From: a virus
Virus record (IMG/VR): IMGVR_UViG_3300009545_000020
Span: 7,444 to 71,443 of that record
Direction: 5' to 3' (one strand)
Length of the DNA stretch: 64,000 nucleotides
Below, piece by piece: positions 3,135 to 64,000 of this stretch. Both the position numbers and the translations under genes were made by a program. The notes beneath the pieces were generated by a model, which was not told the origin of the DNA, did not search any database, and saw only the letters and a list, made by a program, of their open reading frames with translations. Each line of letters opens with the position of its first letter. Position 1 is the first letter of the stretch.

Positions 3135-3167
3135 GATCTTTGCTCCGTCTAAGTTAGATGTGAGAGT

Positions 3168-31058: not shown

Positions 31059-31074
31059 GAGATGCGGATGTCAT
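30628..31074 (-). CDS. DGWEYAS-family paralog 5 (148 aa), overlapping the terL N-terminal frame
   Basis: RPFVASDKLEYASIADRILG matches the four upstream paralogs. Confidence 0.7.
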   Translation of the reverse strand: MTSASREEACERVPADDEINIVIQVDTPFERPFVASDKLEYASIADRILGIPIDNIPNRRVLLTRRQGYKESEVDLYIDWRKAKAPEEIEPDLWDSKAEREWKVRALEDFKATGTYTERDWLTVPDIDTSQRAGAVASRKLDGVECPF

Positions 31075-31369
31075 TGACGAAGATCCGAGTCGCTCGGAAC
31101 CCAGGCATGATGAAAACCGCGTCGTTGAAGTTGTGGCTCAGGAGCGAGCCGTGCTCCTTGTTCCAGTTGTGTTCGCTCGGCCACTTCTTCCGCCCGATCA
31201 TGAGATCGCCGAGGTTCGCGTACTCCCATCCATCAGGTCCGATGCGCGCCGTGAAGGCGGCCAGCTGCTCACGAGCCTGCTTCCCGTACGCCGGGCCGAG
31301 CTTCTTCGCCAGGTTCCGCTGCTGGGCTTCGAGCGAAGCAGCGCGGCCGAAGCGGTCAGCCTTCCGCAT
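31055..31369 (-). CDS. DGWEYAS-family paralog 4 (104 aa)
   Basis: Contains GPDGWEYANLGDLMIG. Confidence 0.7.
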   Translation of the reverse strand: MRKADRFGRAASLEAQQRNLAKKLGPAYGKQAREQLAAFTARIGPDGWEYANLGDLMIGRKKWPSEHNWNKEHGSLLSHNFNDAVFIMPGFRATRIFVNDIRIS

Positions 31370-31982
31370 CGCCGTCTCCGTCGCCGAGCACTTCTTCCAC
31401 GAGTTCGGGGCTCTTCGAGATGCCGTCGGTGATCAGCTTCAGCAACTCGGCGTCGCTGAGCTTGTTCATGCGCTCCATCACGAGGTTGCCTGTGAGGTTG
31501 ATGTCGAGGGTCTTCTTGATCGGCTCGTAGTAGCCGCACATGCGGCCGATCTCGCGCCAGCCGCTGATCATCGAAGCAGGCTCGGCCATGAGCTTCGCCA
31601 TCTCGATTCCTTCGAGCAGGCCATCCATGACCCGCTTCCGGGTCATCTGGCTGGCTTCCTCATAGAGCTTCTTTTCCTTCTCGTACAGCGCAATCACCTG
31701 GGGCAGATGCACGATGCGGTACGCGTAGGAGGCGCCGTCGCCGTAGCCGGCGCGCGCCGAGGCGTTCGGGATGGACTCGCCCTGAGCCCAGAACTTCACG
31801 AACAGCTTCGCCTTGTCGGTCAGCGGCTTGTTCGGGTCGGCACGTTCGGCGAGTTCAGCGACAGGGACTGCGCTGAGGTTGAGGTACTTCGCACGAGCGT
31901 TGAGAGCCGAGCCCTTGCGGTCGACGGCGCTGGCACCGCGCTTCTTGGCGTACCCGCTGCCCTTGCCTTCGCGCGCGGTCAC
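31356..31982 (-). CDS. terS: Terminase small subunit (208 aa)
   Basis: LTDKAKLFV...NASARAGY HTH, EIGRMCGYY; GTG start overlapping the upstream stop; lies upstream of terL. Confidence 0.8.
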   Translation of the reverse strand: MTAREGKGSGYAKKRGASAVDRKGSALNARAKYLNLSAVPVAELAERADPNKPLTDKAKLFVKFWAQGESIPNASARAGYGDGASYAYRIVHLPQVIALYEKEKKLYEEASQMTRKRVMDGLLEGIEMAKLMAEPASMISGWREIGRMCGYYEPIKKTLDINLTGNLVMERMNKLSDAELLKLITDGISKSPELVEEVLGDGDGDAEG

Positions 31983-32194
31983 AGGTACTCCTCGGGGTCG
32001 CGATGACCATGCTCGGTGACGTGGTAGGAGGGAAACGCTTTCCAGTTCTTCAACAGGTTCGAGGCTTCGCGCAGCGCGTTGTGCTGGCTGAAGAGGTAGC
32101 CGATCCGCTCGCCGAGCATGAAGTCGCCGATCGAGGCGTATTCCCACCCGTCCACGGCGACGAAGGGTTTGGAGATGTCGACGGCGGAGGTCAT
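31979..32194 (-). CDS. DGWEYAS-family paralog 3 (71 aa)
   Basis: Contains KPFVAVDGWEYASIGD. Confidence 0.75.
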   Translation of the reverse strand: MTSAVDISKPFVAVDGWEYASIGDFMLGERIGYLFSQHNALREASNLLKNWKAFPSYHVTEHGHRDPEEYL

Positions 32195-32415
32195 ACGGCG
32201 GCGCCCTTCTTCAGGGTATTGAAGTACGACGGGCGCTTCGCGGCGATGAACAAGGCATCCGACCAGATGGATTCCACGGGGGCGCGTACCTTGGCTCGGT
32301 TATGCGCGCTCAGAAGCGGCGATATCGGCCTGTCAAGGACTCGATCGGCCAGCGACGCGTACTCCCAACCGTCGGAGGCAATGAAGGGTTTGGTGACGTC
32401 GACGGCGGGGGTCAT
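32191..32415 (-). CDS. DGWEYAS-family paralog 2 (74 aa)
   Basis: Contains KPFIASDGWEYASLAD. Confidence 0.75.
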   Translation of the reverse strand: MTPAVDVTKPFIASDGWEYASLADRVLDRPISPLLSAHNRAKVRAPVESIWSDALFIAAKRPSYFNTLKKGAAV

Positions 32416-32786
32416 TGGCGGCCGTACTGCTTCACAGCGGCTTCGACGGCGCCGTACTTCGCCACGAGACGCTCGACGAGACCGGGGACCGGTTCGAGGA
32501 TGTCGAAGGCATCGTGCCGGCGGAGGAACTTGGCCAGCAGCTCTCGATGATGGTTGTGATCGGAATCCATTCGGTTCCCGAGCAAGCGATCCGCGATCGA
32601 GGCGTACTCCCAGCCGTCGGAGGCAATGAAGGGCTTGGAGGCCAGCATCTTTCCGACCACCTCATCGGTGTCCTTCTTCTGCTCTTCGAGCATGTCCGTC
32701 AGCTCGTCTACCACGTCATTCAGCTCGACGTAGATAGGGCCGAAGGGCGCGGGCGGCACCGGTTCGAGGGGGAGGGGCTCGGTCAT
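32412..32786 (-). CDS. DGWEYAS-family paralog 1 (124 aa)
   Basis: Contains KPFIASDGWEYASIAD; first gene of the late arm. Confidence 0.75.
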   Translation of the reverse strand: MTEPLPLEPVPPAPFGPIYVELNDVVDELTDMLEEQKKDTDEVVGKMLASKPFIASDGWEYASIADRLLGNRMDSDHNHHRELLAKFLRRHDAFDILEPVPGLVERLVAKYGAVEAAVKQYGRQ

Positions 32787-32790
32787 GTGG

Positions 32791-32825
32791 CTCTAAGCTC
32801 TAAGTTAGACGAGATTCTCGTCTAA
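32791..32825. promoter_or_regulatory. TCTAA multimer plus a perfect palindrome at the head of the late arm
   Basis: CTCTAAGCTCTAAG followed by TTAGACGAGA-T-TCTCGTCTAA (10-bp arms). Confidence 0.55.
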
Positions 32826-41760: not shown

Positions 41761-42766
41761 CCTTCGAGTACGACCTGGTACTCGGCGCACTGAGTGAGCT
41801 AATGCTTGAAAACGAGTATTGGTTTAGCAACTACAAGTTATATATCCAATACGACCGCCCTATGCAGGAATGGTGGTTCCGTCGCGCAAAGCTCCAAGCC
41901 GAGAAAGGAGTACCAGCCATGCGAGAACTAGTTGATCGAGTCATCGCACTGAAGATGCAGTCATGACTGCCGAGAAAACTCTCAATCTCTGGCTCGATGT
42001 ATTGCACGGGAGTACATATACGGCACCCACCGCTGATTACGCGTCAACCCAATGGTTCTGGGGCTTAGTAGTAGGGGCAGGCATATTTGAAAAGATCGAA
42101 GAGACCAAGCGCCTTGCAGCTGAAGGCCACCCTATTGCAGCCGAACTAGTCAGCCTCGTGGTCGCGGAGCGTCTGAAATGAATGAAGTCGACTTCTTCAG
42201 GCAAGTGCTTTACCAAGACGGCCTAATAGACGAATTCGATTATCGATGGACAATTGATGTTGCCGACTCCTGGGAACTCCGCCGACATGTCATCGTCAAT
42301 CTCGCGGCCGCAGGCGACGAACGAGCCACTCGAATCCTCAACGCTGTCATCGCAGAGCGGATGAAATGAGCGACGACGCTGAGACTTTCAGGTACACGCT
42401 AATCGCTAGCGAAGTTAGTAACTTGCATTACCAATGGGTTCGCACTCTAGGAGAAACCTGGGAAGCCCGCCGGCAAGCAATACTGAGTCTTGCAGCCATT
42501 GGTGATGAAACAGCAACCTGGATTCTCAACGCTGTCATCGCAGAGCGGATGAGATGAGCATCAGTACAGCCGAACGTGCATTGTGGTGGAAAGTCTGCGA
42601 AGTAAGACGTGACGATTGGTTCTTTGCCGTAGACGATAACAAAGCAATGAACTTCGTCCAACGCATGGACTACCGAATAACCAGAACCAAAGAACTCGCA
42701 GCTCAGGGCGATCCAAAAGCAATCGAACTCCTCAACCGCGTCATCGCAGAAAGAATCCTCACATGA
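41742..42766 (+). CDS. Array A: five coupled small paralogs (41742-41966, 41963-42181, 42178-42369, 42366-42557, 42554-42766)
   Basis: All end in LAAxG(D/H)xxAxxLLxxV(I/V)AER(M/L/I)-like tails; ATGA overlaps. Confidence 0.8.
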
Positions 42767-43887
42767 ACTCTGAAGTCCTCACCAAATTGACCAAGGCGCG
42801 TATCGCTCTGATCTTCGAACAACCTTTCTTCGGTCAGCTCGCCTTGCGCTTGGCGCTGAAGGAGATGAGCCCGGCGCATGAAGCGATGTTCGCCGCTCAC
42901 GGTATGATCCCAACCCTCGCAGTCGACGGTAAGACGATCTACTACTCGCCGAGCTTCATCCAGGGCCTCAGCCACGAACTCACCAAGTCCGCCCTCGCCC
43001 ACGAGATCGGTCATTGCATCTACGACCACACGGGCCGGCGCGGCGCGCGCGAGCCGATGCGCTGGAATTTCGCTGGCGACTACGTCATCAACGACATGCT
43101 CAAGGACGCGAACTTCGAGATCGGCAAGGGCTGGCTCCTCGATGCGCAATACAAGGGCATGTCGAGCGACGAGATCTACAACAGGTTGCCGACGGAAGAA
43201 GATGGACAAAGCCAAGGCGGCGGAGGCTTCGATATCGTCATGGACGCCGAGGCCGGCGAAGCCGAGGTCGAGGCCCTGGAATGGAAGATCGCCGTCAGCC
43301 AGGCCGCCCAGACCGCCAAGGCCGCGGGCAAGCTGCCGGCGAGCCTCGAACGCTTCCTCGAAGAGATGCAGGCGCCGAAGGTCGACTGGCGTGCTCAGCT
43401 CCGCCAGTTCGTCACCCAGCTCTCGAAGAACGACTACACCTGGATGCGGCCGAACCGCCGGTTCCTGAGCGCTGGCTTCTTCATGCCCAGCCTTTTCAGC
43501 GAGAACATGGGCACGATCGCCGTGGCAATCGACACCTCGGGCTCGATCGACGCTAAGACACTCACCGCATTCGGCGCCGAGATCAAGGCGATCAAGGACA
43601 GCGTGAACCCCGAGAAGATCGTCATCATCTACTGCGATGCGCGGGTCAACCACATCGACACGTTCGAGCAGTACGACGAGCTGCACTTTGACATGCACGG
43701 CGGCGGCGGCACCGACTTCCGCCCGCCGTTCGAGTACCTGAAGGAACACGAGATCAACCCGGCGTGCTTCGTGTACCTCACGGACGGCTACGGCCCGTTC
43801 GGCGAGTCGACGACGTTCCCGACGCTGTGGTGCATGACGACGGAAGTGAAAGCGCCGTTCGGCGAGAACATCCGGATCGAGGTGTGA
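42763..43887 (+). CDS. DUF2201-like metallopeptidase plus VWA domain protein (374 aa)
   Basis: HEIGH zincin motif, MIDAS DTSGS, GGGGTDF and YLTDG. Confidence 0.88.
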   Translation: MNSEVLTKLTKARIALIFEQPFFGQLALRLALKEMSPAHEAMFAAHGMIPTLAVDGKTIYYSPSFIQGLSHELTKSALAHEIGHCIYDHTGRRGAREPMRWNFAGDYVINDMLKDANFEIGKGWLLDAQYKGMSSDEIYNRLPTEEDGQSQGGGGFDIVMDAEAGEAEVEALEWKIAVSQAAQTAKAAGKLPASLERFLEEMQAPKVDWRAQLRQFVTQLSKNDYTWMRPNRRFLSAGFFMPSLFSENMGTIAVAIDTSGSIDAKTLTAFGAEIKAIKDSVNPEKIVIIYCDARVNHIDTFEQYDELHFDMHGGGGTDFRPPFEYLKEHEINPACFVYLTDGYGPFGESTTFPTLWCMTTEVKAPFGENIRIEV

Positions 43888-43888
43888 A

Positions 43889-44512
43889 GTGAGCTTCGCT
43901 CGCGAACACTTTGCTGCATACAAAGCGTTGCGGGAAAAGTATTTCCCGTACATGAGCCCGGACTCAGCGCTTTGGCATGTTCGAAACGACATCAACAACG
44001 CAATCATTCGCAAGCTGCTTCCTCCCGAATTCGAGATCCAAGGAATTTATCGAGATGCGAAGTTTGATGTCGAAGATCACACGATCAAAGCTGGTAGCAA
44101 GTCCTTCGACGATCGCGACATTCTCGAAGGATTCGCAATGATCATCGAACCTGGTCGGAATAGCCAAGGTGCAAGCCAACGATGCAGCGAATACCAACTC
44201 CAAAGTGGCAGCTACACCATCCTCAACTATTCGGAAGATACCGCTTACAAGGATCTACGCAAGGAAAAGGTTGGCAAAGCAGACGCACGCCGCCGGGCAA
44301 TAGAGAGTCGTCAAAGAGATGTGGTCTACGTTGAGAACGTTCAACGTGGAAACATTTACGAAGTTGATGTATTTGTTGAATGCGACGACATCGACTTCTG
44401 GGAATGTGAGGTTTTTTCAACCGATAGCGAAGACGAAGCAACCGCTTGGCTCGAAGACACCATAACCAAATGCGCCGCCGAGATCCGAGCAACCGTTGCC
44501 GCCAAGGAATGA
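43889..44512 (+). CDS. Hypothetical protein (207 aa), low GC
   Basis: ORF directly after the VWA gene. Confidence 0.55.
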   Translation: MSFAREHFAAYKALREKYFPYMSPDSALWHVRNDINNAIIRKLLPPEFEIQGIYRDAKFDVEDHTIKAGSKSFDDRDILEGFAMIIEPGRNSQGASQRCSEYQLQSGSYTILNYSEDTAYKDLRKEKVGKADARRRAIESRQRDVVYVENVQRGNIYEVDVFVECDDIDFWECEVFSTDSEDEATAWLEDTITKCAAEIRATVAAKE

Positions 44513-44690
44513 CATGCCCCCCACCCCCAAGTTCATCCTCGTCCCACAGCCCCTTCTGCTGCGTGCCATCCGTGCCCTTCGCTACAAGGCCCAACACGAG
44601 GGAAACGGCTACAAGAACAGCGTGGACTGGGCCGATGCCAATGCGCTGAAGAAGCTGGTCGACGAGGCAAAGGCTTCCCCCGGCGTCTAA
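44496..44690 (+). CDS. Hypothetical protein
   Basis: Small coupled ORF; start uncertain. Confidence 0.45.
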   Translation: MPPRNDMPPTPKFILVPQPLLLRAIRALRYKAQHEGNGYKNSVDWADANALKKLVDEAKASPGV

Positions 44691-44734
44691 GCTCGTAGTA
44701 CGATCTAACCTTCAGCCATTAGAGATCGACCGCC

Positions 44735-45619
44735 ATGCCCATCAATTCCTGGTCTTATAGCTCCCTCGCCGAGTTCGAGAAGTGCGCCTTCCGGGCCTAC
44801 CTGAAGTACGACCAGCGAATCCCCGAGCCCCAGCGCGAGTTGCCCCCAGGCAAGACCGAGCATGCCAACGATCGCGGCACCCGTATCCATACGGCCGCTG
44901 AGATGTTCGTGCAGAGCAAAGGCCCCTTCATCCCTGAGATGAAGAAGTTCGAGGCCGAGTTCATAACCCTGCAGCAGCTCTACAAGCAGGGCAAGGTCTC
45001 ACTCGAAGGCGAATGGGCGGTGACCGACCAGTGGGAGCCCGTAGCTTGGGGAGGGGAATGGAAAGAAGGCTACTTCTTCGGCGAAGAAGCCGACAACGAG
45101 ATCAAGGTCGTCAAAAAGCTGCCGCAATACGGGCGCTTCGGCGATGTCGTCAAGCTCGGCAAGAAGCTCTACGGCTGGATGCCCGCCTGGCACCGATCGA
45201 AGATCGACGCCATGGTGACATACAACGAAGGCACTTCGGCCGTCGTCATCGACTACAAGTCCGGCAAGAAGTTCGGCAACGAGATCAAGCACGGCGAGCA
45301 GGTTCAGCTCTACCAGCTCAACGCCTTCATGCGGTACCCGCATCTCGAAGAGGTCGTCACCGAACTCTGGTACCTCGATGTCGATGACATCACGCGCATG
45401 AAGTTCACGCGGGACCAAGGGCTTCGGTTCAAGCGCTCGTTCGACATACGCGGGAACAAGATGGTCAACGCCACGACCTTCCCGGCCAACCCCAACAAGT
45501 TCAGCTGCCAATACTGCATGTATTCGAACCGCCCCGACGGCGGCACGAGCCAATGCACCGTCGGCGTCGACAAGGCCGGCCGGCGCTGGCCGAGCGGGAT
45601 CGCGGTCGTCGCAGCCTAA
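44735..45619 (+). CDS. PD-(D/E)XK exonuclease (Cas4/RecB-like, 294 aa)
   Basis: WSYSSL..FEKC, RGTRIH, KID...IDYKSGK, QVQLY and CQYC...C. Confidence 0.85.
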   Translation: MPINSWSYSSLAEFEKCAFRAYLKYDQRIPEPQRELPPGKTEHANDRGTRIHTAAEMFVQSKGPFIPEMKKFEAEFITLQQLYKQGKVSLEGEWAVTDQWEPVAWGGEWKEGYFFGEEADNEIKVVKKLPQYGRFGDVVKLGKKLYGWMPAWHRSKIDAMVTYNEGTSAVVIDYKSGKKFGNEIKHGEQVQLYQLNAFMRYPHLEEVVTELWYLDVDDITRMKFTRDQGLRFKRSFDIRGNKMVNATTFPANPNKFSCQYCMYSNRPDGGTSQCTVGVDKAGRRWPSGIAVVAA

Positions 45620-45631
45620 CCCGAGAGAACC

Positions 45632-45928
45632 ATGACACCCTTCACCGACAACCGCGGCAAGAACTGGCTACCAGAGCATTACCGCCTGATCAAAGACCTG
45701 TTCATCGCGGGTACATCTCTGCAGGACATCGCCAGGCGATCCGGCCGCACGCCCGTCGCCGTGGTGTCGAAGCTCAGCGAACTGGGACTGATCACGATCA
45801 AAGGACGTGATTACCACAAGGTTGACCCCGATCCCTGGATGAGCTGGACGATGCTGAAGATCGAGAACGAAGAGTTCGAGGCCAACATCAAGAGCTTCTA
45901 CGCCAAGTCCAAAGAACCGCAGCCATGA
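45632..45928 (+). CDS. Small HTH/Myb-like protein (98 aa)
   Basis: NRGKNW...IARRSGRTPVAVVSKLSELGL. Confidence 0.55.
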   Translation: MTPFTDNRGKNWLPEHYRLIKDLFIAGTSLQDIARRSGRTPVAVVSKLSELGLITIKGRDYHKVDPDPWMSWTMLKIENEEFEANIKSFYAKSKEPQP

Positions 45929-46093
45929 CCGAGACCAAGAAAAAGCGGTTACGAAGCACAACGCGACTTCGTAGAGACGTCAATCGATTGAAGAACAAGT
46001 TCGTGACTTGCAAGATGCTCGGACACGAGAACCTAGCAACACATTGCCTGGACATGCTCAACAGACGGATGTCGCGGCTCGCGAAGGTCGAGC

Positions 46094-46285
46094 ATGGATA
46101 GAGACGAACTCCTCGGGCACATCGCAAGGTGCACAGCCGACCTCGTGAGGATCAAACTCATCGAAGGAGATGAGACCGAAGAATACAAATGGATTCGCTG
46201 GAATCGAACCATATACCAGATGAAACTTAACGAACTTGACCGTCACCCTTCAGTCATCTCTGCCGCCCTCACCTCTAAGCCCTAA
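46094..46285 (+). CDS. Hypothetical protein (63 aa)
   Basis: Small ORF in the plus-strand operon. Confidence 0.45.
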   Translation: MDRDELLGHIARCTADLVRIKLIEGDETEEYKWIRWNRTIYQMKLNELDRHPSVISAALTSKP

Positions 46286-46290
46286 TCAAG

Positions 46291-47751
46291 ATGCTCGCTT
46301 CGATCAAACCCTTCCGGCATCAAGTCCTGTCCATCAAGCACAACGACAAGACGCCGATCGTGTACGACACGAGCGAGCCCGGCACGGGAAAGACATACGT
46401 CCGCATCGCGGCCTACGCGAAGCGCCAGAAGCGCCTCAAGCACAAGCTCCTCGTGCTCTGCACTCGCTCGACGATGCAAAGCGTCTGGGCCGCGGACTTC
46501 AAGAAGTTCGCCCCGCATCTGCGTGTGGTGATCGCTGACGCTGCACACCGCGAAGCTGCATTCGCAACTGATGCCGACGTGTACATCGCGAACCATGACG
46601 CGGTGAAGTGGCTGAGAGCGAAGAAGAAGGCGTTCTTCGCGAATTTCCGCGAACTCGCGGTCGACGAGTGCACAGCCTTCAAGCACCACACGAGCCAGCG
46701 CAGCAAGGCGATCGTGAAGATCCGGAAGCACTTCGAGTACGTGGCCCTGATGACCGGCACGCCGAACCCGAACGGCATCTGCGATGTGTGGCACCAGGTC
46801 AAGATCCTCGACAACGGCGAGCGCCTGGGTACCTCGTACTACGCCTTTCGCAACACGGTCTGTGCACCGACACAGAAGGGCAAGAACGAGAACGCCATCG
46901 AATGGACCGACAAGGAAGGCGCCGAGGAAGCTGTGTTCGGGCTGCTCACCGACATCGTGATCAGCCACAAGCGGGACAAGTGCCTGGATCTGCCCGAGAA
47001 CCACCAGTATTCGGTGCCCTACTTCCTCAGCGAGAAGCAGAAGAAAGCCTACGTCACGCTGCACGAAGACCAGATCATGCTGTTCGGCACCAGCAAGCCG
47101 CTGACCGCCAAGCAGAAGGTCGAGTTCGTCCGGGCCAAGATGCTCGGCACCCCGGCACCCACCGTGAAGATCTCCGCGGTGAATGCTGCTCAGGTGGCCA
47201 ACAAGCTGCTGCAGGTCTCCTCTGGCGCGGTCTACGAATCCGCCGGCAAGTACCACGTGATCGATCAGGCCCGGTACGAGTTCGTCATGGACCTCGCCGA
47301 GGAGAGCCCGCATAGCCTGGTGTTCTTCCTCTGGCAACACCAGCGAGATCTCCTGGAGCTGCAGGCGCAGACCCGCAAGCTGCGCTACTGCATCATGGAC
47401 GGCGAGACCAGCGACCGAGACCGCGCTGCGAACGTCATGGCCTACCAGGCTGGCAAGTTTGACATGATGTTCGCCCACCCGCTGGTCATGGCGCACGGGC
47501 ACACGTTGACCCGAGGCCGCCGGACAATCTGGTCGAGCCCGACATACAACCTGGAGTGGTTCAAACAAGGTTCGCTGCGCCAGAACCGGATTGGCCAGAA
47601 GCACAAGACCGAGAACATCGTCGTTGTCGCTGAGGGCACGATCGAAGAAGCCGTGTACTCCGAGATGCTCGCGAAGGATGCACGCATGACGAACCTTCTC
47701 GATTTATTCTCTTCTCTAACGTCTAATCACGATCTAAGGAAGGCGGCATGA
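46291..47751 (+). CDS. SNF2-family helicase (486 aa)
   Basis: EPGTGKT, VDEC, MTGTP, HGHTL and RQNRIGQ. Confidence 0.88.
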   Translation: MLASIKPFRHQVLSIKHNDKTPIVYDTSEPGTGKTYVRIAAYAKRQKRLKHKLLVLCTRSTMQSVWAADFKKFAPHLRVVIADAAHREAAFATDADVYIANHDAVKWLRAKKKAFFANFRELAVDECTAFKHHTSQRSKAIVKIRKHFEYVALMTGTPNPNGICDVWHQVKILDNGERLGTSYYAFRNTVCAPTQKGKNENAIEWTDKEGAEEAVFGLLTDIVISHKRDKCLDLPENHQYSVPYFLSEKQKKAYVTLHEDQIMLFGTSKPLTAKQKVEFVRAKMLGTPAPTVKISAVNAAQVANKLLQVSSGAVYESAGKYHVIDQARYEFVMDLAEESPHSLVFFLWQHQRDLLELQAQTRKLRYCIMDGETSDRDRAANVMAYQAGKFDMMFAHPLVMAHGHTLTRGRRTIWSSPTYNLEWFKQGSLRQNRIGQKHKTENIVVVAEGTIEEAVYSEMLAKDARMTNLLDLFSSLTSNHDLRKAA

Positions 47752-47897
47752 AGGAATTTATTTCGGCTATCGCGATTGCAGCTTGGATATTCGGTCTTGT
47801 CCTTGCCAAAGGATTCTGGTCGACGCTCATTGCATTAACTATCTTCCCATGGAGCTGGTACCTCGTCGCAGAATATTTGATTAAGAGGTTTTCGTGA
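47748..47897 (+). CDS. Small membrane protein (49 aa)
   Basis: MKEFISAIAIAAWIFGLVLAKGFWST...; coupled at both ends. Confidence 0.55.
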   Translation: MKEFISAIAIAAWIFGLVLAKGFWSTLIALTIFPWSWYLVAEYLIKRFS

Positions 47898-48328
47898 ATC
47901 GAAAGTACCGCGACATGGAGGACCGGCTTTTCTCGAACTCCTTCGCGATGGACTGCGGCTACGAGACTGAGTGCTGGGTGTGGATGGGCGCAAGCGATGG
48001 CAAAGGCGCATACCCGCGGATGTCGGTAGGAATCGACAAGACCAGAAAAGTCAAGAAGGCCAGCGCGCATCGAGTCTCGTACGAAACGTTCATCGGCCCG
48101 ATCCCCGCCGGCTTCGAACTCGATCACAAATGCCAGGTGACTCGGTGCATTCACCCGAATCATCTTCAACCACTACCTCCGCCGGATAACCGGCGACTCG
48201 TTCAAGCAAGGAAGAAGCATGCGAGTGTTCCTAATCTGCGTCACGATCCTCCTCGCCATGCGCATGACGATGGAGTTCGTGCTGATCATGAAGAACTCGA
48301 ACACGAACACGAGCTGCAGCACAGCTGA
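47894..48328 (+). CDS. HNH endonuclease
   Basis: CWVWMG, AHRVSY and LDHKC....CIHPNHL. Confidence 0.85.
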   Translation: MNRKYRDMEDRLFSNSFAMDCGYETECWVWMGASDGKGAYPRMSVGIDKTRKVKKASAHRVSYETFIGPIPAGFELDHKCQVTRCIHPNHLQPLPPPDNRRLVQARKKHASVPNLRHDPPRHAHDDGVRADHEELEHEHELQHS

Positions 48329-48337
48329 TCTGACGAC

Positions 48338-48730
48338 ATGAAATATCTGCTCCACACCGCTCCATTGCCAATCACGGTAATCTGCTACGCGAAGGTCGTG
48401 GCAATGCTCAGTGAACAGCCTTGTACCTACGCGCAGATGGTGGCGGAGATCGGCATGACACGCAGCACGATTGCCAAATTCATCGCAGCGTTGCGCAAGG
48501 AAGACTACTGCTACATCGCAGCATGGACCGCCAATGACAACGGCCGGCGCAACCTTGCGATGTTCCAGATGGGCTCCAAGCAAGACGCGAAACAACCGTC
48601 CTATACCGACGCCGAGAAGAAAGCGCGCTATCGCCGCCGAAACAAGGAACGGATCAAGGAGAAGGCGCGCGAGAAGTATCGACAGAGTACCTACAAGCAA
48701 CTGATGTCGATCGCGGAAGTACGAGCGTGA
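48338..48730 (+). CDS. HTH DNA-binding protein (130 aa)
   Basis: TYAQMVAEIGMTRSTIAKFIAALR. Confidence 0.55.
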   Translation: MKYLLHTAPLPITVICYAKVVAMLSEQPCTYAQMVAEIGMTRSTIAKFIAALRKEDYCYIAAWTANDNGRRNLAMFQMGSKQDAKQPSYTDAEKKARYRRRNKERIKEKAREKYRQSTYKQLMSIAEVRA

Positions 48731-49510
48731 ACCAGACGGAGATCCGCGAACTGGTGCGGTCGATCCTGACCGACGCCGGTTGCAAGTTCACGGTCAGGCA
48801 TGTCGACAGCTATCGGTTCGTCACCATCAGCAATGAGCATCACGAAGTGCTGCGAGGTGCTTCGCGAGATCTACGAGCCAGGGTGATCTTCGCTGATGAA
48901 GCCTACCGAGACACGCTGCCAAAGGTTCACCTTCGCAGTCTCGCGCGGCTACTGAAACTGCTCGACATCGCAGTCGCACGCGATGTCCGCAGAAAGATGT
49001 TGTCATGACCGACTACGAGAAGCTCACCGAACTTGAACGGCTGTACTCGCTGGGCAAAGGCGACTCTATTCCGATTAAGGATAGAACGACCGAATGCTGG
49101 ATCAGAGACTTGGCCCTCCGATACAAGCACTTCAGACTTCGCTGGTCATACAGAAACTACTGCATAGATGTCCACGTCGATCAGTACGGGCTCTGCTGCC
49201 TGATCTCCGCGCTGCAGAGAACGATCAACGAGAGAGTTGCGAAGAAGATTCTGTCATGAAGCTCAACCTTACGCTGTTGCAGAAGAAGTCAGAGTTAAGT
49301 GCGCTGATTTCAACGATCGACAAGCATGTCTACCTGACTGACGTGCAGTGTGAATGGGTCCGCGCATTGGCGCTTCATCACCATTTGTCTCCGGATGTTG
49401 TCTTCTTTGTGCATGGGATAGGACGAGCTTCAACTCATTGCCTCGGCCAACTCCTCGATAAAGTCGACAACGAAATCAATGAGCAAGTAGCAAGAAAGAT
49501 GCTCTCATAA
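48727..49510 (+). CDS. Array B: three coupled small ORFs (48727-49008, 49005-49259, 49256-49510)
   Basis: Tails DVRRKMLS, INERVAKKILS and INEQVARKMLS; the last two also share W(I/V)RxLAL. Confidence 0.75.
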
Positions 49511-51564
49511 TGGGCTGGTCATCTGCAATCAAGAAGGTTGAGCAAGCTCCCTTCCTCCGCCCTTCGTTCGAGAAGCATCGAGTCGATTGGGATCGCCTAG
49601 TCTCGGTTGACTTCGAGACGTACTTCGACGACGCCTACACGCTCAAGAAGCTGAGCACATCGGAGTACGTTCGCGACAAGCAGTTCTCAGCGCACATGGC
49701 CTACGTGAAGATCGGCAAGCGCAAGGCGCGGATCATCCCCGCCAAGATGCTCAAGACCTATCTGAAGGCTATCGATTGGTCGACGCACTCGCTCCTCGCT
49801 CACCACAACCAGTTCGACGGCTTCATCCTGTCGACGCACTTCGGCATCAAGCCGAAGTTCAACTACTGCACGCTCAGCATGGCGCGCGGGCTGCACAGCA
49901 ACGAGATCGGCGCTGGCCTCGACGAGGTCTCGCAGTTCTACGGTGGAGGCGGCAAGACCGAAGGCGTCATCGAGTTGATGAGAGGCGTGAAGGACCTCAC
50001 CACCGTCCCCGGCCTCTACGACAAGGCGGCCCACTACTGCATGAACGACGGCGAGGAGATGTACCGCGTCTTCAAGCTGATGATCGACGACATGCCGGCC
50101 GACGAGATCGAGCTGATCCATCGCACGTGCGTGATGTTCAACGAGCCGGTGCTGAAGCTAGACAGGGAAAGAGCCCTACAGGCACTCGCCCAGGAACTGC
50201 AGGACAAAGAGGATCTTCTCTTTTCCATTGCTGGTACACCGGCCCAGGTCAAGCGCCTCATCGCCGACGCTGAGCCCTCCAAGGCCCTGCTCAAGAAGAA
50301 CCCGAACGCCACGCCCAAGGATGCCGTGTTCGAGGCGGCCCGCAAGAAGCTCCGCAGCAGCGAGCAGTTCGCCGATCTCCTGCGCGCTGAGGGCATCGAG
50401 CCGCCACGGAAGATCTCACCAGCCTGGAAGAAGCTGCCCAAAGCCGAGCGCACGGACGACAAGAAGTATAGCTACGCCTTCGCCCAGACCGACCTGAGCT
50501 TCAAACGCCTCCTCGAACACCCCAGGAAGCGCGTGCGCCAGCTCGTGGAGGCTCGATTCGCGGTGATGAGCAACACGACAGAGACGCGCGCCGGCCGCAT
50601 GCTGAAGAGCGGGGAGCGCGGAGCATCCCTGCCGATCTACTACCGCTACGCCGCGGCGCACACACTGCGCTTCGGCGGCGGCGACAAGCGGAACTACCAG
50701 AATCTCGAACGCGGTGGCGAGCTGCGTAAGTCGATCCTCGCGCCGAAGGGCTTCCTCATCGCCGTCGGTGACTCGGGCCAAATCGAGGTACGGGTCACCG
50801 GGTACATGGCTGGCCAGGACGATCTGCTCGAAGACTTCCGCCTGGCCGACCAGGGCCTCGATCGCGACGTGTACTGCAAGTTCGGCGATGTGATCTATGG
50901 CCGCGAGATCAACAAGGTCGACGAGGACGAACGCTTCGTCAGCAAGGTCGGAGTGCTTTCGCTCGGGTACGGTGCGGGCCACCATCGGTTTCAATCGACC
51001 CTCGCGCTCGGCCAGATGGGGCCGCCGGTGTTCATCGACCTGGAGCTGGCGCAGAAGGTCGTCAATGCCTACCGCCGCAAGAACTGGAAGATCGTTCAGT
51101 GGTGGGGCAAGTGCGAGCAGATCCTCGAAGACATGGCGACCGGCCGCACAGGGACCCACAAGTGCATCAGCTGGGAGAAGGAGAAGATCTGGCTCCCGAA
51201 CGGCATGTGCATGAAGTTCCCGAACCTGCGCTGGAAGAAGAAAGACTCGGATGACGAGGACTCGCGCGACGGCTGGGTCTACACCCGCAAGGGCAACGAC
51301 ATCAAGATCTACGGCGCAATGCTCTGCGAGAACATCAGCCAGGCCCTCGCCCGGATCATCGTCACGACGCAGTTGCTCGACGTTGCCCGCCTCGGCTGGC
51401 GAGTCGTGATGACAACGCACGATGAAATCGCCCTCATCGCTCGGATCGCGAAGGCCAAGAAGGCGTACGACGAACTAATGATGAAGATGAAGATCGCCCC
51501 GCACTGGGCGCCGGACATTCCATTGAACTGCGACGGGAAGCTGGAGCCGTACTATGCAAAGTGA
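49510..51564 (+). CDS. polA: Family A DNA polymerase with 3'-5' exonuclease (684 aa)
   Basis: DFET, HHNQFD, YCMND, NYQNL, GDSGQIE, K...LSLGYG and THDE. Confidence 0.92.
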   Translation: MGWSSAIKKVEQAPFLRPSFEKHRVDWDRLVSVDFETYFDDAYTLKKLSTSEYVRDKQFSAHMAYVKIGKRKARIIPAKMLKTYLKAIDWSTHSLLAHHNQFDGFILSTHFGIKPKFNYCTLSMARGLHSNEIGAGLDEVSQFYGGGGKTEGVIELMRGVKDLTTVPGLYDKAAHYCMNDGEEMYRVFKLMIDDMPADEIELIHRTCVMFNEPVLKLDRERALQALAQELQDKEDLLFSIAGTPAQVKRLIADAEPSKALLKKNPNATPKDAVFEAARKKLRSSEQFADLLRAEGIEPPRKISPAWKKLPKAERTDDKKYSYAFAQTDLSFKRLLEHPRKRVRQLVEARFAVMSNTTETRAGRMLKSGERGASLPIYYRYAAAHTLRFGGGDKRNYQNLERGGELRKSILAPKGFLIAVGDSGQIEVRVTGYMAGQDDLLEDFRLADQGLDRDVYCKFGDVIYGREINKVDEDERFVSKVGVLSLGYGAGHHRFQSTLALGQMGPPVFIDLELAQKVVNAYRRKNWKIVQWWGKCEQILEDMATGRTGTHKCISWEKEKIWLPNGMCMKFPNLRWKKKDSDDEDSRDGWVYTRKGNDIKIYGAMLCENISQALARIIVTTQLLDVARLGWRVVMTTHDEIALIARIAKAKKAYDELMMKMKIAPHWAPDIPLNCDGKLEPYYAK

Positions 51565-53011
51565 TGAGCTGCCGGATCACCCGGCGAGGAAGTTGCCGGA
51601 GTTCCATTCACTGCGAGCGATCCGCTACGGGCACGATGGACCTGCTTTTTCGGTTGGTGCAAAAGCCGACTGTCCTGATGGGTATAGGGCTCGTTTTGGG
51701 AACTGGCTTCCCACTGCCCAGGAAGCGCTCGACGTGTTCCTTGCCGAGCACATCGAGAAGAAGTTGCTGGCATGAAGTACATCAGCAACGAAGTTCCGAA
51801 TCACCCTGCAAGAAAGCTCCCGCAGTTTCATTGCCTACTTCATCAACCCTGTCTAGCTGGAAACTTCCGAGTCAGTGTAGTCCGATCAATACCCTTCGAA
51901 CTGCATTGGCACCATACCGCGACAGAAGCACTGGATGAGTTCTTCGCGGCGTGCCTCGCTGAGAAGATGCTGCGATGAACTGTAAAGAACTCCCTGACCA
52001 CCCTGCGCGGCCACTCATGCGCACTAAGAACGTGTGTCTTCATGTGGACAAGACAGTCGTAAAGGCACCCTACGAAATCTTCGATTACGTAGGTCAGCGA
52101 GTGTTCTATGGAAACACTGCAAAAGAAGTTCTCGATGCGTTCTACAACAGCCACATTGAAAGAATGATGCTGCGATGATCTGCAATGAACTTCCTGACCA
52201 TCCGGCTAGAAAGATACCCGTGTTCAATCGACTAGAACTCAACAATTCTAGTACGACACTAGGCCCCAGATACTGCGTCATTCGGTCTAGCTACACTGAT
52301 TCCCGAATAGCGACTAGCGAAACCTGGAGTTACACGGCTGAGGAAGCACTCAATTGCTGCTTTCGAGATTACTTGAGCTGGAAGATGCTGCGATGAACTG
52401 CAAAGAACTCCCTGACCATCCGGCACGTCGTCTGAAGAACTTCCAAGAGATTGAAACAGCAGTGGGGTACGGCGACGGGGTAGATTTTTATCGGGTCTGG
52501 GGCCTAGATTCCTACTTCTGTGAGGCTGCAACCGCGCAAGAAGCACTCGATACCTTCTACAACGAACACATCGCGAAGAAGATGCTGTGATGAATTGTGA
52601 TGACCAACACCCCGATCACCCAGCACGGCAACTGCTCGGCTTCGGAGGGGTGTACAAATCCACCGCTCCAGGAACTCAAGACGAGCCGTTCTATATCTGG
52701 TCGACAAGATCGAATGGGGTGTTCTGGGGTGCGACACCAAAGGAAGCACTCGACGAGTTCTACAACGATTACATAGCGCAGAAGATGTTGGCATGAAGCG
52801 CGATGACTTACCCAATCACCCTGCGAGGATGGCCAACACTTTCGGTTCCCTCGTCTACCTCCCATTGACGAACCCAGAAGCACCGCGTTTCTTCATTTCG
52901 TTCGTTACTGACCCCAGTAGATACATCTCATCCGGCTTTTGGTCCTACACCGCCGAGGAAGCACTCGATGCCTTCTACCAAGACTACCTCGAACGAAAAC
53001 TCCTCGGATGA
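51554..53011 (+). CDS. Array C: seven coupled paralogs (51554-51775, 51772-51978, 51975-52178, 52175-52396, 52393-52590, 52587-52796, 52793-53011)
   Basis: All carry N-terminal P(D/N)HPAR and C-terminal T(A/P)xE(A/V)L(D/N)xF...(K/M)(M/L)L; ATGA overlaps. Confidence 0.9.
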
Positions 53012-53776
53012 GATCGTCGGAATTCATCCGGTGATCGAGCATCCTCAGTTCAGGTCGTTGATCAACATGGACGGGCATTTCCATGTGAGATTGAAGACCG
53101 GGGTCAATGACAAGTTCTACAGTCTCACCGCCAAAGGCGCGCTCGATCTCGCATGGAACGAACTCATTGCAAGGAAGATGATCGATGACTGATACCGAGA
53201 TTCTCGACTACCTCGACAAAGAAGCTATCTCAGGTCGCAATCCGCGCGACGTGATCATCGGCGATGTTCAATTTGTTGTCGGTATCAATCGCAAGACGAC
53301 ATTTCGAGAAGCGGTAATCGGCGGAATCGCCAAGGCCAACGAACTAAAGGTCGATCGAGTCAGAAAGAAGATACTGTCATGAACAAGGTCGAAAAAGAAG
53401 TACGTGCACACCCGTACTTCCAGTCGATCAAGAAACCAGATTCGACTGGATGCGTCTTCGTCGTGTATTGGAGAGATCCGTCTGACCTCGACCACAACAA
53501 AAAGCCGACGTTGAAAGCAGCTTGGAGTTACGACCGCAGTGCTGCTTTCGAAGAGGCTCAGCAGCAGATCCTGACTGCAATGGTGATGAGATGAGTGATG
53601 CCGAGAAGGCAGTCCGGGCGCATCCGTGGTTCAGGCGACTTGGAGAGAGCGATGGTCGGTACTTCGTGCTCTACAAAGACGCTGACTCTTTCCCGGCGAT
53701 CGTGTGGCACGCAGACAAAGACATAGCGTTTCAGATGGCTCTCGAAAACATCCTCAGACATCAACTCCGCCTATGA
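52968..53776 (+). CDS. Four further small ORFs (about 52968-53192, 53185-53382, 53379-53594, 53591-53776); diverged array members
   Basis: HP(Q/Y/W)F motif in three; tails TAKGALDLAWNELIARKMI and RVRKKILS. Confidence 0.65.
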
Positions 53777-54252
53777 CTCTTGCCCTTCATCCCCGAGTCC
53801 TGCCGACGTTCACCTCGTGGATCGTCTCACGCGGTGCTCAAGTCCTGGCTACGACGAACGAGTACGAGATGCTGCGGTTCAAGACCGACACGGGAACTGG
53901 CGTCGTGTACCGCAATAAGCACTTTCGTCTAAAGCTCGTCGGCGAAGCTCCCGTCGCCTTCGAAGCGTTCCGCAAGGGCCTGCCCTGGCGTGCGACGCCG
54001 GCTGTGCCCCGCGTACGACGCTCGGCAGACGAACAAACCTTGCGCCTACGCGACGGCGATCTGTGCTTCTTCTGCCAGAAGGATCTCGGTGACGACGCCA
54101 CGGTCGAGCACCTGGTTGCTCGAACCCACAGCGGACCGAATCACATCAGCAACAAGGTTCTGGCGCACAAGATCTGCAACGCCGACGTGGGCCACATGAG
54201 CGCGATGGAAAAGATCCGCATCCATACCCAGGCCCTATTGTCTAAGCTCTAA
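53773..54252 (+). CDS. HNH endonuclease domain protein (159 aa)
   Basis: RDGDLCFFC...TVEHL...N..LAH..CN. Confidence 0.8.
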   Translation: MTLALHPRVLPTFTSWIVSRGAQVLATTNEYEMLRFKTDTGTGVVYRNKHFRLKLVGEAPVAFEAFRKGLPWRATPAVPRVRRSADEQTLRLRDGDLCFFCQKDLGDDATVEHLVARTHSGPNHISNKVLAHKICNADVGHMSAMEKIRIHTQALLSKL

Positions 54253-54333
54253 GTTAGATGTTAGGATGTCATCCAACGAACCATGGGTGACCCGTACCAC
54301 GCCGATCTCGGCAAAACCACCCAAGGAAAGCAC

Positions 54334-54759
54334 ATGACCGTTGCCTCACCCACCAAAACCGCGGCCAAAAAGGCCGCCAAGGGCGCCACCGTCGGCTCGA
54401 TGATCGATGAGATGTGGCTGCTGCGCGAGCAGAAGCGCGCCCTCGAATCCGAGGTCAAGGTGATCGAGAAGAACATCGCCGCCCTGCAGGAACAACTCCT
54501 CGGCAAGATGGACGCCGAAGGCATCAAGGCCTCCACCGGCCGCGCCGCGAGTGCTTCGGTCACCGAGGTCATCACGGCGAACGTCGAGGACTGGGATGCG
54601 TTCTGGGCCTACATCGCCAAGAACAAGTACTTCCACCTCGTGCAGCGCCGCGCCAGCGACCCCGGCGCGCGCGAGCTGTGGGAGCAGGGCAAGAAGATCC
54701 CCGGCGTCGTGCCGTTCAAGAAGACCAACCTCAACCTCCGTTCGCTTTCCGCCGCCTGA
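54334..54759 (+). CDS. Conserved phage replication/recombination accessory protein (141 aa)
   Basis: Coiled coil followed by VEDWDAFWAYI...LVQRR...IPGV; AAGGA RBS. Confidence 0.65.
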   Translation: MTVASPTKTAAKKAAKGATVGSMIDEMWLLREQKRALESEVKVIEKNIAALQEQLLGKMDAEGIKASTGRAASASVTEVITANVEDWDAFWAYIAKNKYFHLVQRRASDPGARELWEQGKKIPGVVPFKKTNLNLRSLSAA

Positions 54760-54801
54760 GCCTCTAAGCTCTAACTACGATCTAAGAAAGGATCGACCAT
54801 C

Positions 54802-55605
54802 ATGGCAACTGCCAGCAAGCCCGCCGCCAAGAAGGCAGCACCCTCCCCCGCCGCCAAGAAGACCAGCACCGCGGTCGCAGTCAAGAAGCCGGGCGGCGCC
54901 GTCGTCGACATCGCCGCGATGCGCGAGGCCCTGCGTCAGCAGGCCGCCGGCATGGGCGACCGCACCCAACCGGGCAGCGGCCTGAAGATCAGCACGAAGG
55001 GCAAGCGGTTCACGCTACCCGACGGCACGAAGACCACCGACCCGCTCAGCCTGGTCATCCTCGACTTCATCGCGATCAACAAGTTCTACCAGGGCAAGTA
55101 CGACGCGGAGAACCCGGAAGCGCCCGCGTGCTTCGCGATCAGCGTCAACCCGAAGAACATGATCCCGAGCGCGAACTCGCCCGTTCGTCAGTCGGACGCC
55201 TGCAACGGGTGCCCGCTGAACGAGTTCAAGTCGGCCGACAACGGCAAGGGCAAGGCGTGCAAGAACGGCCGGATGCTGGCCGTGCTGTCGCCCGATGCCG
55301 ACGAGGACGACGACATCTGGTTGATCGAGGTCAGCCCGACCGGTCTGAAGGGCTTCGACAACTACGTCGCCGGCCTGGCCCGCATGGGTATGACGCCCAT
55401 GGAGATGATCACCACGGTGTCTCTCGACGAGGCGCAGGACTACCCGGTGCTGCAGTTCAGCAACCCGGTGCCCAACGAGAACCTGGCGGTGCACTTCGCG
55501 CGTCAGGAAGAAGCCAAGAAGCTGCTGGCGACCGAGCCCGATGTGTCGAGTTTCAAGAAGGCCGAGCCGCCGCCGGCCAAGAAGCAGGCCAACGCGCGCC
55601 GCTGA
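54802..55605 (+). CDS. Putative ssDNA-binding / annealing protein (267 aa)
   Basis: PACFA...CNGCPLNEFKS...GKACKN motif of phage SSB-like proteins found near polA. Confidence 0.6.
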   Translation: MATASKPAAKKAAPSPAAKKTSTAVAVKKPGGAVVDIAAMREALRQQAAGMGDRTQPGSGLKISTKGKRFTLPDGTKTTDPLSLVILDFIAINKFYQGKYDAENPEAPACFAISVNPKNMIPSANSPVRQSDACNGCPLNEFKSADNGKGKACKNGRMLAVLSPDADEDDDIWLIEVSPTGLKGFDNYVAGLARMGMTPMEMITTVSLDEAQDYPVLQFSNPVPNENLAVHFARQEEAKKLLATEPDVSSFKKAEPPPAKKQANARR

Positions 55606-55614
55606 TCAAGTTTC

Positions 55615-55688
55615 GGGGGCGCGGTTCGATTCCCGATCGCGCTCGGGTTTGACTCCCCGGCTGGTTGCCTTAATGGCGCGGCGCCCCC
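55615..55688 (+). ncRNA. Candidate tRNA-sized structured RNA with two T-loop motifs
   Basis: GGGGGCGC/GCGCCCCC closing stem enclosing GGTTCGATTCC and GGTTTGACTCC. Confidence 0.4.
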
Positions 55689-55716
55689 TCCCCCTTCCCA
55701 CCACGAGAGAGCCAAC

Positions 55717-55902
55717 ATGGCAACCACGAAGACCTTCAAACCCAAGACCAAGGTGAAGTACACGAAGCGCACGGGCGAGACCCGTGACGGCGTCATCAAG
55801 GAGATCGACGAGACCGGCAGCAAGGGTGCCTGGTACCACGTCGTCGACACCGAGACCAAGGCCGTCGCCAAGGTCCGCCAGGCCAACCTCGCGTTCGCCT
55901 GA
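55717..55902 (+). CDS. Small SH3/KOW-like basic protein (61 aa)
   Basis: Beta-rich Lys/Thr sequence followed by a GC hairpin at about 55910-55928. Confidence 0.6.
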   Translation: MATTKTFKPKTKVKYTKRTGETRDGVIKEIDETGSKGAWYHVVDTETKAVAKVRQANLAFA

Positions 55903-55956
55903 TCGAGCTGGGGCGCTGCGGCGCCCCTTCCTTCTGCCCCTTCACCTGAGACCAAC

Positions 55957-56310
55957 ATGACCAAGACCGACATTGCCCAGATCTGCCACGAGGCCAACCG
56001 CGCCCTGTGCGTGACGCTCGGCGACCTTTCGCAGCTGCCCTGGGCCGATGCACCCGAGTGGCAGCGCGAGAGCGCCCTGAAGGGCGTGACCTTCCGCGCC
56101 GAGAACCCGGACGCGCCGGCCAGCGCCACGCACGAAGCCTGGAGCGCCGACAAGATCGCCGACGGCTGGGTCTGGGGGATGGAGAAGAACGTCATCGCCA
56201 AGACCCATCCGTGCCTCGTGCCGTTCGACATGCTGCCCCCGATGCAGCAAGCCAAGGACGTGCTGTTCGGCGTGATCTGCATGGGTCTGCTGCAGTTCGT
56301 GGGGGCTTGA
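55957..56310 (+). CDS. RyR-domain protein (117 aa)
   Basis: HEAW...DGWVWG...KTHPCLVPFDMLP...KD is the RyR repeat signature. Confidence 0.8.
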   Translation: MTKTDIAQICHEANRALCVTLGDLSQLPWADAPEWQRESALKGVTFRAENPDAPASATHEAWSADKIADGWVWGMEKNVIAKTHPCLVPFDMLPPMQQAKDVLFGVICMGLLQFVGA

Positions 56311-63770: not shown

Positions 63771-63984
63771 CTATGGCTGGCAACTATGGCTAAACGACCC
63801 GGTCTAAGCCTTTCTAAGGCTTTCTAATGCTCCATCTGTTAGTGGTCCCTAACCCCGGAACCCCTGCAGATGGTAGGCGCGAATGGACTCGAACCATCGA
63901 CCCCCACCATGTCAAGGTTCAAGACATCCGCTGCAAGCCAATGAATCCGGGGCTTCCAACCAACTATGGCTGTTTCACTATGGC
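63771..63984. mobile_element. attP site: core is the 3' half of tRNA-Val(GAC) (63871-63918, minus strand), flanked by arm-type repeats
   Basis: The minus strand reads ACCTTGACATGGTGGGGGTCGATGGTTCGAGTCCATTCGCGCCTACCA; CTATGGC pairs at 63771/63784 and 63964/63978. Confidence 0.88.
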
Positions 63985-64000
63985 CGTTAGATTTTAGAGC

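Follow-up and report, generated by a model that had tools for sequence, protein, structure and literature searches.

Directly downstream of the gene for a family-A DNA polymerase (polA) in the uncultured virus of IMG/VR record IMGVR_UViG_3300009545_000020 lies a head-to-tail run of small genes, which we call array C. The window analyzed here is 64,000 nt in length (bases 7444–71443 of the 71,443-nt record, which CheckV rates as complete), and coordinates refer to this window throughout unless another sequence is named. Array C reflects the tandem expansion, long ago, of a single private family of small proteins, 65–73 amino acids in length. Its first seven genes, all on the + strand, are m1 (51554–51775, 73 amino acids), m2 (51772–51978, 68 amino acids), m3 (51975–52178, 67 amino acids), m4 (52175–52396, 73 amino acids), m5 (52393–52590, 65 amino acids), m6 (52587–52796, 68–69 amino acids, starting at GTG 52587 or ATG 52590), and m7 (52793–53011, 72 amino acids). 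The joints of m1–m7 consist of six ATGA stop/start overlaps and one TGATG. The start of the array overlaps the 3' end of polA (49510–51564, + strand; Pfam DNA_pol_A, 1.3e-11; phrog_17, 2.8e-60) by 11 nt. A copy of m5 identical to this one occurs on metagenome contig L030.

The seven proteins have nearly constant ends. The motif P(D/N)HPAR is present at residues 7–12 in seven of seven copies (alignment A2), as is T(A/P)xE(A/V)L(D/N) toward the C-terminus. The phenylalanine that follows the latter motif is cysteine in m4, and the terminal KML is KLL in m1 and m7 and MML in m3. Amino acid identity to m1 is 31–44% (alignment A2), and the copies find one another by BLASTP with pairwise E values of 5e-5 to 9e-15. 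A jackhmmer search from m5 against all 976 stop-to-stop open reading frames (ORFs) of the genome converged on m1–m7 (E values of 1.5e-22, 3.5e-25, 7.3e-31, and 1.1e-28 for m1 through m4) and on one further ORF at 52968/53010–53192. An earlier note on this DNA had described seven head-to-tail paralogs with constant ends; motifs, BLASTP, and jackhmmer agree on all seven, but the total is larger. The further ORF is a diverged eighth member, m8 (52968–53192, + strand, starting at ATG 52968 or GTG 53031; jackhmmer E 6.9e-9), which has HPxxxHPQF where m1–m7 have PDHPAR and ends in KMIDD. Three more small + strand ORFs extend the run to 53776 and are joined by the same type of overlap as m1–m8. These are m9 (53185–53382, 65 amino acids), which has only its RKKILS tail in common with the others, m10 (53379–53594, 71 amino acids), which begins with AHPYF, and m11 (53591–53776, 61 amino acids), a paralog of m10 (38%). 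m10 is a possible distant relative of m1–m8, to judge from profile comparison (hhalign probability 6%, P 0.006).

The junctions between genes form degenerate direct repeats, as the earlier note had stated. One repeat family, D1, comprises six 81-nt copies with 60–74% identity to the reference, and two others (D3 and D4) were found as well. Tandem Repeats Finder did not report any repeat of ~200-nt period. The match to which the note had drawn attention, 37 of 38 nt between 51963–52000 and 52381–52418 at the m3/m5 junction, does exist as a 38-nt run with one mismatch. It is not significantly long given the identical amino acids it encodes: in 2000 rounds of synonymous-codon resampling with the proteins held fixed, such a run was unexceptional (P = 0.08), and for this reason it is weak evidence of gene conversion.

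Codon usage points to protein-level selection on the ends and to old duplications. For this analysis, the codon alignment of m1–m7 was split into an N-terminal part (columns 1–24), a core (columns 25–58), and a C-terminal part (columns 59–79). Pairwise amino acid identity is 51% at the N-terminus, 13% in the core, and 52% at the C-terminus. The fraction of identical degenerate residues that use the same codon is 0.37, 0.30, and 0.58, respectively, compared with 0.51–0.56 expected from codon usage in seven of the phage's large genes. These fractions, near or below expectation, show that synonymous sites are saturated and that the duplications are old, with protein-level selection preserving the ends. 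The codons of the PxHPAR motif show this directly, with proline encoded by CCG, CCT, CCC, and CCA (four codons), alanine by GCG, GCA, and GCT, and arginine by AGG, AGA, CGG, and CGT (four codons). The claims of synonymous variation in this motif and of selection at the protein level are thereby borne out. Recent segmental amplification was considered and rejected, given copies that are 31–44% identical, same-codon fractions at or below expectation, and no period of ~200 nt.

One short tract behaves differently at the nucleotide level. Where the C-terminal helix begins, E-A-L-D is encoded by a nearly invariant run of codons (GAAGCACTCGAT-like), with GAA in 7/7, GCA in 5/6, and CTC in 6/7 cases; the sites are at approximately 51724–51735, 51927–51938, 52127–52138, 52345–52356, 52542–52553, 52745–52756, and 52960–52971. 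Short conversion tracts or a signal at the RNA or DNA level are possible explanations.

The variable part of these proteins is a predicted β-sheet. We modeled m1 with AlphaFold2 using an eight-row alignment, which yielded a predicted local distance difference test score (pLDDT) of 81 and a predicted template modeling score of 0.65. The model consists of a coil that includes a short helix (residues 10–13), three strands (17–24, 30–40, and 43–48), and a second helix (55–72). The predicted layout is an N-terminal strap (ELPDHPAR), a three-stranded β-meander, and a long C-terminal helix that ends in a basic-hydrophobic tail (KKML-x). In the model, the strap and the helix are what stays constant, whereas the variable core is the β-meander itself plus its loops. 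The earlier note had envisaged a fixed scaffold that displays variable surfaces. A common predicted fold agrees with this idea; variable loops set on a constant scaffold do not, as the core is the sheet.

No clear structural relative was identified. Foldseek returned nothing at E≤0.001 in the PDB or BFVD, the best E being 0.23. The best match by VIA-align among 48,161 chains was a double-stranded RNA-binding domain (dsRBD) of TARBP2 (7zpj_D; Z 5.4, 63 aligned residues, root-mean-square deviation (rmsd) 2.7). T7 Gp1.2, a dGTPase inhibitor, scored Z 5.0 (7u65_G; 70 aligned, rmsd 3.8), and ribosome hibernation factors also scored near Z 5. The m1 model has the short helix, three antiparallel strands, and long helix of dsRBD-like and other β-meander-plus-helix domains in the same order. 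The difference from dsRBDs and from Gp1.2 is that all Z scores are under 8, a level at which the tool warns that a match may be merely a common arrangement, and that the Pfam dsrm family does not match. None of the 10 array proteins had a Pfam match at E≤1 (0/10), and the best feature score in the ESM Atlas was 0.88, under the 0.9 level.

Comparison of strains reveals how the copies evolve. This comparison used assembled contigs only, which drop rare variants, and for runs X4 and X6 the parts of the stretch without cover were left out of interpretation. Runs X2 and X4 have the same array with 0 differing letters in the pieces listed. Run X3 contains a diverged strain, which differs from the window at 36/1278 nt of polA (2.8%), 5/237 nt of m4 (2.1%), and 56/598 nt of m6–m8 (9.4%, from a single 1003-nt contig). 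The uneven divergence suggests that the array may be a mosaic produced by recombination. The contig encodes orthologs of m6, m7, and m8 in the same order (P0004, P0011, and P0015). P0004 differs from m6 at 12 positions and P0011 from m7 at nine. Within the aligned piece there are ~20 residue differences, eight in m6, nine in m7, and three in m8; by region, four are in straps, eight in cores, and eight in helices. With eight changes in ~83 core residues and 12 in ~114 residues of the ends, the core is not the faster part between orthologs. A rough hand estimate for m6–m8 gave pN ~0.05 and pS ~0.23, a ratio of ~0.2. In polA, 23/25 listed differences of the X3 strain are at third codon positions, suggesting amino acid divergence well under 1%, as against ~12–13% for m6 and m7 in the same strain pair. 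The array proteins thus appear to be under purifying selection yet to change much faster than polA.

Gene content also appears to differ between the strains. One X3 contig has a joint, 53590>53773, that skips 182 nt at a 4-nt ATGA microhomology (depth 3.5, with a side of 35 nt). The joint removes exactly m11, so that the stop codon of m10 overlaps the start of the following HNH endonuclease gene at ATGA. The flanks of the 1003-nt contig (185 nt upstream of 52614, 220 nt downstream of 53211) do not align to the window at at least 80% identity, which indicates that the neighbors of m6–m8 differ in the X3 strain, and the body of m9 likewise has no alignment at at least 80% there. No copy-number variant inside m1–m7 was seen in the contigs. 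A further X3 joint, 53211>53406, with one side just 26 nt in length, was excluded from the evidence. The accordion-like behavior that the earlier note proposed is retained in part: the m11 joint in X3 appears to be a gain or loss of one gene unit at a junction, whereas an accordion in the sense of recent amplification is not found. Its hypervariable, antibody-like repertoire is not supported, as the copies are synonymously saturated old duplicates, the core evolves no faster than the ends, and the genome has no reverse transcriptase. With respect to the last, PF00078 had 0 matches in the 71,443-nt record, while control genomes were positive, and a target of a diversity-generating retroelement was ruled out on this basis.

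The family is private to one uncultured lineage of siphovirus-like phages from soil and rhizosphere, as far as sequence searches extend. Among 1.84 billion representative proteins, the A2 profile had nine matches, six of which belong to this phage or a near strain; the other three, long repetitive proteins in which weak repeat scores sum, were dismissed as artefacts. A word-indexed search of 5.8 billion clusters yielded seven matches, 7/7 from the same lineage. In PHROGs the best E values were 0.12–0.32, to unrelated families only, head proteins being included in the search. No member was found at E≤0.1 in 26 loci with related polA genes (21 viral, four from metagenome-assembled genomes (MAGs), and Pseudomonas phage KPP25), and a blastn search of 49510–53600 with 'distant' settings had no match in 50,697 phage records. 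Viral contigs searched with m6 alone and with the query A3 contained no relative. In metagenome contigs, the sole match to A3 was a 1444-nt fragment of this phage itself (99.93% identity), and in genome contigs there was none. The polA query matched four distant MAG contigs among the genome contigs, all free of the family, and no host was assignable from them. By sequencing-run look-up, the phage is present in metagenomes of rhizosphere and of soil that come from several studies. Profile search outside the lineage returned no homolog carrying a named function, and a literature search by concept returned nothing on arrays of this type; a vibrio phage paper (PMC12028318) proved irrelevant.

The C-terminal tail of array C recurs in other small genes of the phage. 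We defined a strict tail as an ORF end consisting of two basic and two hydrophobic residues followed by zero to two residues. This pattern occurs in 11/975 ORFs of the genome, all of them small + strand genes in three places (array C with m9, and two further arrays, B and A), compared with 3/4193 ORFs in the 26 related loci. Three more array C copies fit if E, W, or Q is allowed in first position, which brings the count to 14/17 small genes. Array B, just 5' of polA, contains three + strand genes with ATGA overlaps (48727–49008, 49005–49259, and 49256–49510; 84–93 amino acids) that end in RKMLS, KKILS, and RKMLS. The bodies of these proteins have no detectable similarity to array C. At the position of array B, L017, the closest IMG/VR relative, has a single unrelated small ORF. 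Array A lies outside the window (L031:649–870, 867–1082, and 1079–1294, + strand) and also has ATGA overlaps; its proteins, 71–73 amino acids in length, begin with M(T/S)ELP(D/E) and end in KKMLG, RKMLS, and KKILS. AlphaFold predicts the strap–three-strand–helix layout for array A as well (pLDDT 70). The best VIA match of this model is the C-terminal half of PH domains (Z 7.3), and eight entries, such as 1h10_A and 6d7k_H, are common to the VIA lists of arrays A and C. Homology between the arrays was not shown by sequence: when array C was compared with A, B, and m10/m11 by hhalign, the probabilities were 2.6–8%. All the small genes that share the tail are private to this phage.

The tail is reminiscent of the C-terminal ClpX signal of MuA, RRKKAI, as given in Table 1 of PMC8138137. 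AKKML, RKMLS, KKILS, and EKKLLA likewise have two basic and two hydrophobic residues at the extreme C-terminus. The resemblance was judged by eye, and the tail here differs in forming the end of a predicted helix. That 14/17 small genes share the KKML-type tail hints at a common docking or degradation signal.

Array C is embedded in a replication module. In order, the module contains a DUF2201/VWA protein (42763), a PD-(D/E)XK exonuclease (44735), and an SNF2 helicase (46291), then an HNH gene (47894), an HTH protein (48338), three small ORFs, polA, array C, and a second HNH gene. The second HNH endonuclease closes the slot (53773–54252, + strand; Pfam HNH, 5.5e-4; phrog_7785, 2.2e-18), and its start is likely ATG 53773, which would overlap the stop of m11. 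Two different HNH genes (47894–48328 and 53773–54252) bracket the block of polA plus arrays. On the 3' side of the second are a Gp157/DUF7307-like gene (54283) and a gene for a RyR-domain protein (55957). The order of exonuclease, helicase, polA, small genes, and Gp157-like gene is the same in KPP25 and in L017, whose polA proteins are 38% and 49% identical to this one, respectively. Since the slot 3' of polA holds two to three unrelated small genes in both L017 and KPP25, array C occupies a variable slot, bounded by polA and the Gp157-like gene.

The interval 51554–53776 contains no notable promoter-like site and no notable terminator-like site on the + strand, and the first strong + strand terminator-like hairpin is at 55910. 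Most simply, array C would be part of one long operon. Among the copies, a GGAG precedes the start of m1 alone, and the remaining copies start at ATGA overlaps; such restarts would fit translational coupling. More generally, most genes of the replication module (42763–56310) do not have a GGAG/GAGG-type Shine-Dalgarno sequence within 20 nt, and many start at ATGA overlaps. This pattern hints at a host with weak dependence on such sequences or at heavy translational coupling. The RyR-domain protein (55957–56310, 117 amino acids; Pfam 1.9e-11, phrog_5154 8e-39) is encoded directly after the hairpin at 55910.

Several features of the record were observed outside this region. The first 4 kb of the window (1–4000) have a G+C content of 69–71%, compared with 52–65% elsewhere. 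All-against-all comparison of ORFs identified repeated sequence on both strands at ~30.6–32.8 kb (30600–32800) and a pair of small ORFs (41936–42181 and 42509–42766) with 54% identity over 28 amino acids. The record is classed as 'linear, no end repeats', despite a 130-nt direct repeat (98.5% identity) between its ends, L031:68–197 and window 63871–64000. A terminal repeat, an att duplication, and an assembly overlap are all possible explanations. In neither of the two parts that carry the repeat did ARAGORN detect a tRNA gene.

The explanation we favor, which we hold with moderate confidence, is that array C is an old private expansion in a variable slot, with specialized copies that serve as accessory host-directed binding modules. 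The array would be read through as a single operon, with each copy restarting at an ATGA overlap. Purifying selection at the protein level maintains strap and helix; the sheet is near-random between copies, yet conserved within each copy between strains, and this conservation argues for copies that are specialized rather than hypervariable. Strains appear to differ by insertions and deletions of whole genes at the junctions. The strap, helix, and tail may define the fold and perhaps also a docking site common to all copies, with the diverged sheet giving each copy a target of its own, in host takeover or in counter-defence. A diversified accessory repertoire with turnover of gene units is supported. 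Small early genes that sit in a variable slot, are restricted to a lineage, and evolve rapidly as proteins are typical of takeover and counter-defence functions, and we infer a role of this kind from the slot, the lineage restriction, and the fast evolution. Several points weigh against this explanation. No family, named homolog, or clear structural match gives a function; the ortholog comparison comprises three proteins on one short contig, with a rough dN/dS; and m6–m8 have about twice the synonymous divergence of polA, such that their fast evolution may in part reflect recombination with a more distant lineage. The deletion of m11 is seen in a single contig, aligned at 80% likeness, with the depth of 3.5 and the 35-nt side given above. 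The sheet could also simply tolerate change, with function residing in the conserved ends.

The last point leads to an alternative that we regard as possible but doubtful, in which all KKML-tailed genes of arrays A, B, and C act alike through strap and helix/tail. The proteins would dock to one phage or host machine or be recognized by an AAA+ unfoldase, the sheet would be a tolerant, drifted spacer, and copy number would record past selection for dosage. Conservation is indeed concentrated in the ends, array A is predicted to have the same strap, three strands, and helix, and the tail type is common to 14/17 small ORFs from three arrays whose bodies are not detectably homologous. The enrichment of the strict tail in this genome over the related loci (11/975 versus 3/4193) and its resemblance to RRKKAI (PMC8138137) point in the same direction. 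A drifting spacer, however, would not be expected to be kept between strains about as well as the ends, as each core is, and it would be unusual for dosage alone to maintain seven to eight copies that are synonymously saturated. Another reading, in which the tail tags the proteins for a ClpX-like unfoldase or a phage machine while the sheets grip different host proteins, in effect a toolkit for targeted degradation, is a long shot. If it were true, tail-tagged adaptors would deliver chosen host proteins to the host protease or would themselves be timed by it. We consider unlikely, though less so than this tagging scheme, the proposal of the earlier note that array C is an anti-defence or decoy repertoire still undergoing diversification, its hypervariable surfaces set on a fixed scaffold and its copy number rising and falling through recombination at the junction repeats. 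It accounts for the 13% core identity with insertions and deletions, the degenerate junction repeats, the one gene-unit difference between strains, the unaligned flanks of the X3 contig (185 and 220 nt), and the excess of m6/m7 amino acid divergence (~12–13%) over that suggested for polA (well under 1%), and a precedent is documented in T4, in which the counter-defence gene region dmd–tifA is amplified by microhomology (PMC9391042). The copies are old, though, with no excess of core change between orthologs and an estimated dN/dS of ~0.2, as expected under purifying selection; given the protein sequence, the 37/38-nt junction match has P = 0.08, the arrays of X2 and X4 have 0 other letters in the listed pieces, and there is no defence-related homology.

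Two further possibilities carry little weight. That the proteins are packaged in the virion and injected in the manner of T-even internal proteins, with the N-terminal motif as a capsid-targeting or processing signal and the body as an anti-restriction payload, is very improbable: the genes lie within the replication operon between polA and HNH, away from head genes, the C-terminus is as strongly conserved as the N-terminus, and no PHROG is similar, head proteins included. Least credible is that there are no genes here but an open repeat at the DNA level, such as a recombination array or origin iterons. The degenerate direct repeats beside replication genes, which recur every ~200–220 nt, and E-A-L-D codons nearly fixed at the nucleotide level, could be read in this way. 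This reading is already contradicted by conserved residues that use different synonymous codons across copies, by the single frame that stays open through every unit, with units joined exactly at ATGA, and by the confident predicted fold, and there was neither a Tandem Repeats Finder period of ~200 nt nor an Rfam match at gathering score.

Array C has partial counterparts in known phage systems. Large phages such as G and 121Q have tandem arrays of similar genes (PMC5646251), and array C resembles these in consisting of head-to-tail paralogs of one gene without assigned function that are attributed to tandem duplication. It differs from them in having eight clear copies (11–17 if tail-sharing genes are counted) in a 71-kb genome, in the 31–44% identity of these copies, and in having no sequence relation to the other phage proteins searched. 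The internal proteins of T-even phages are diverse and have only a constant targeting peptide in common (PMC3012670). The two have in common a short constant terminal peptide on diverse small proteins, which in the T-even case are proteins of phage–host conflict; array C, however, is constant at both ends, is located in the replication module, and lacks sequence similarity to these proteins. Finally, T4 amplifies dmd–tifA through microhomology, and the accordion of poxvirus K3L is cited alongside it (both in PMC9391042). The likeness is in tandem small early genes and short microhomologies, represented here by one gene-unit insertion or deletion at 4 nt. Accordion copies, however, are near-identical and transient, whereas the copies in array C are synonymously saturated and individually conserved. 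We conclude that the proteins of array C form a new, undescribed family within an already known type of phage feature.

Small private genes in variable slots of replication modules have yielded many counter-defence and host-takeover proteins. Confinement of the present family to one uncultured soil phage lineage limits its immediate testability. The array nonetheless provides a clean natural example of small genes that multiply, specialize, and swap as units at stop/start overlaps, and it adds an undescribed family with a predicted mini-fold and with sharply conserved motifs at both ends. Should the tail common to these genes be a docking or degron signal, the strap, sheet, and tagged helix would constitute a compact modular scaffold with which targeted binding and degradation could be studied or engineered in bacteria.

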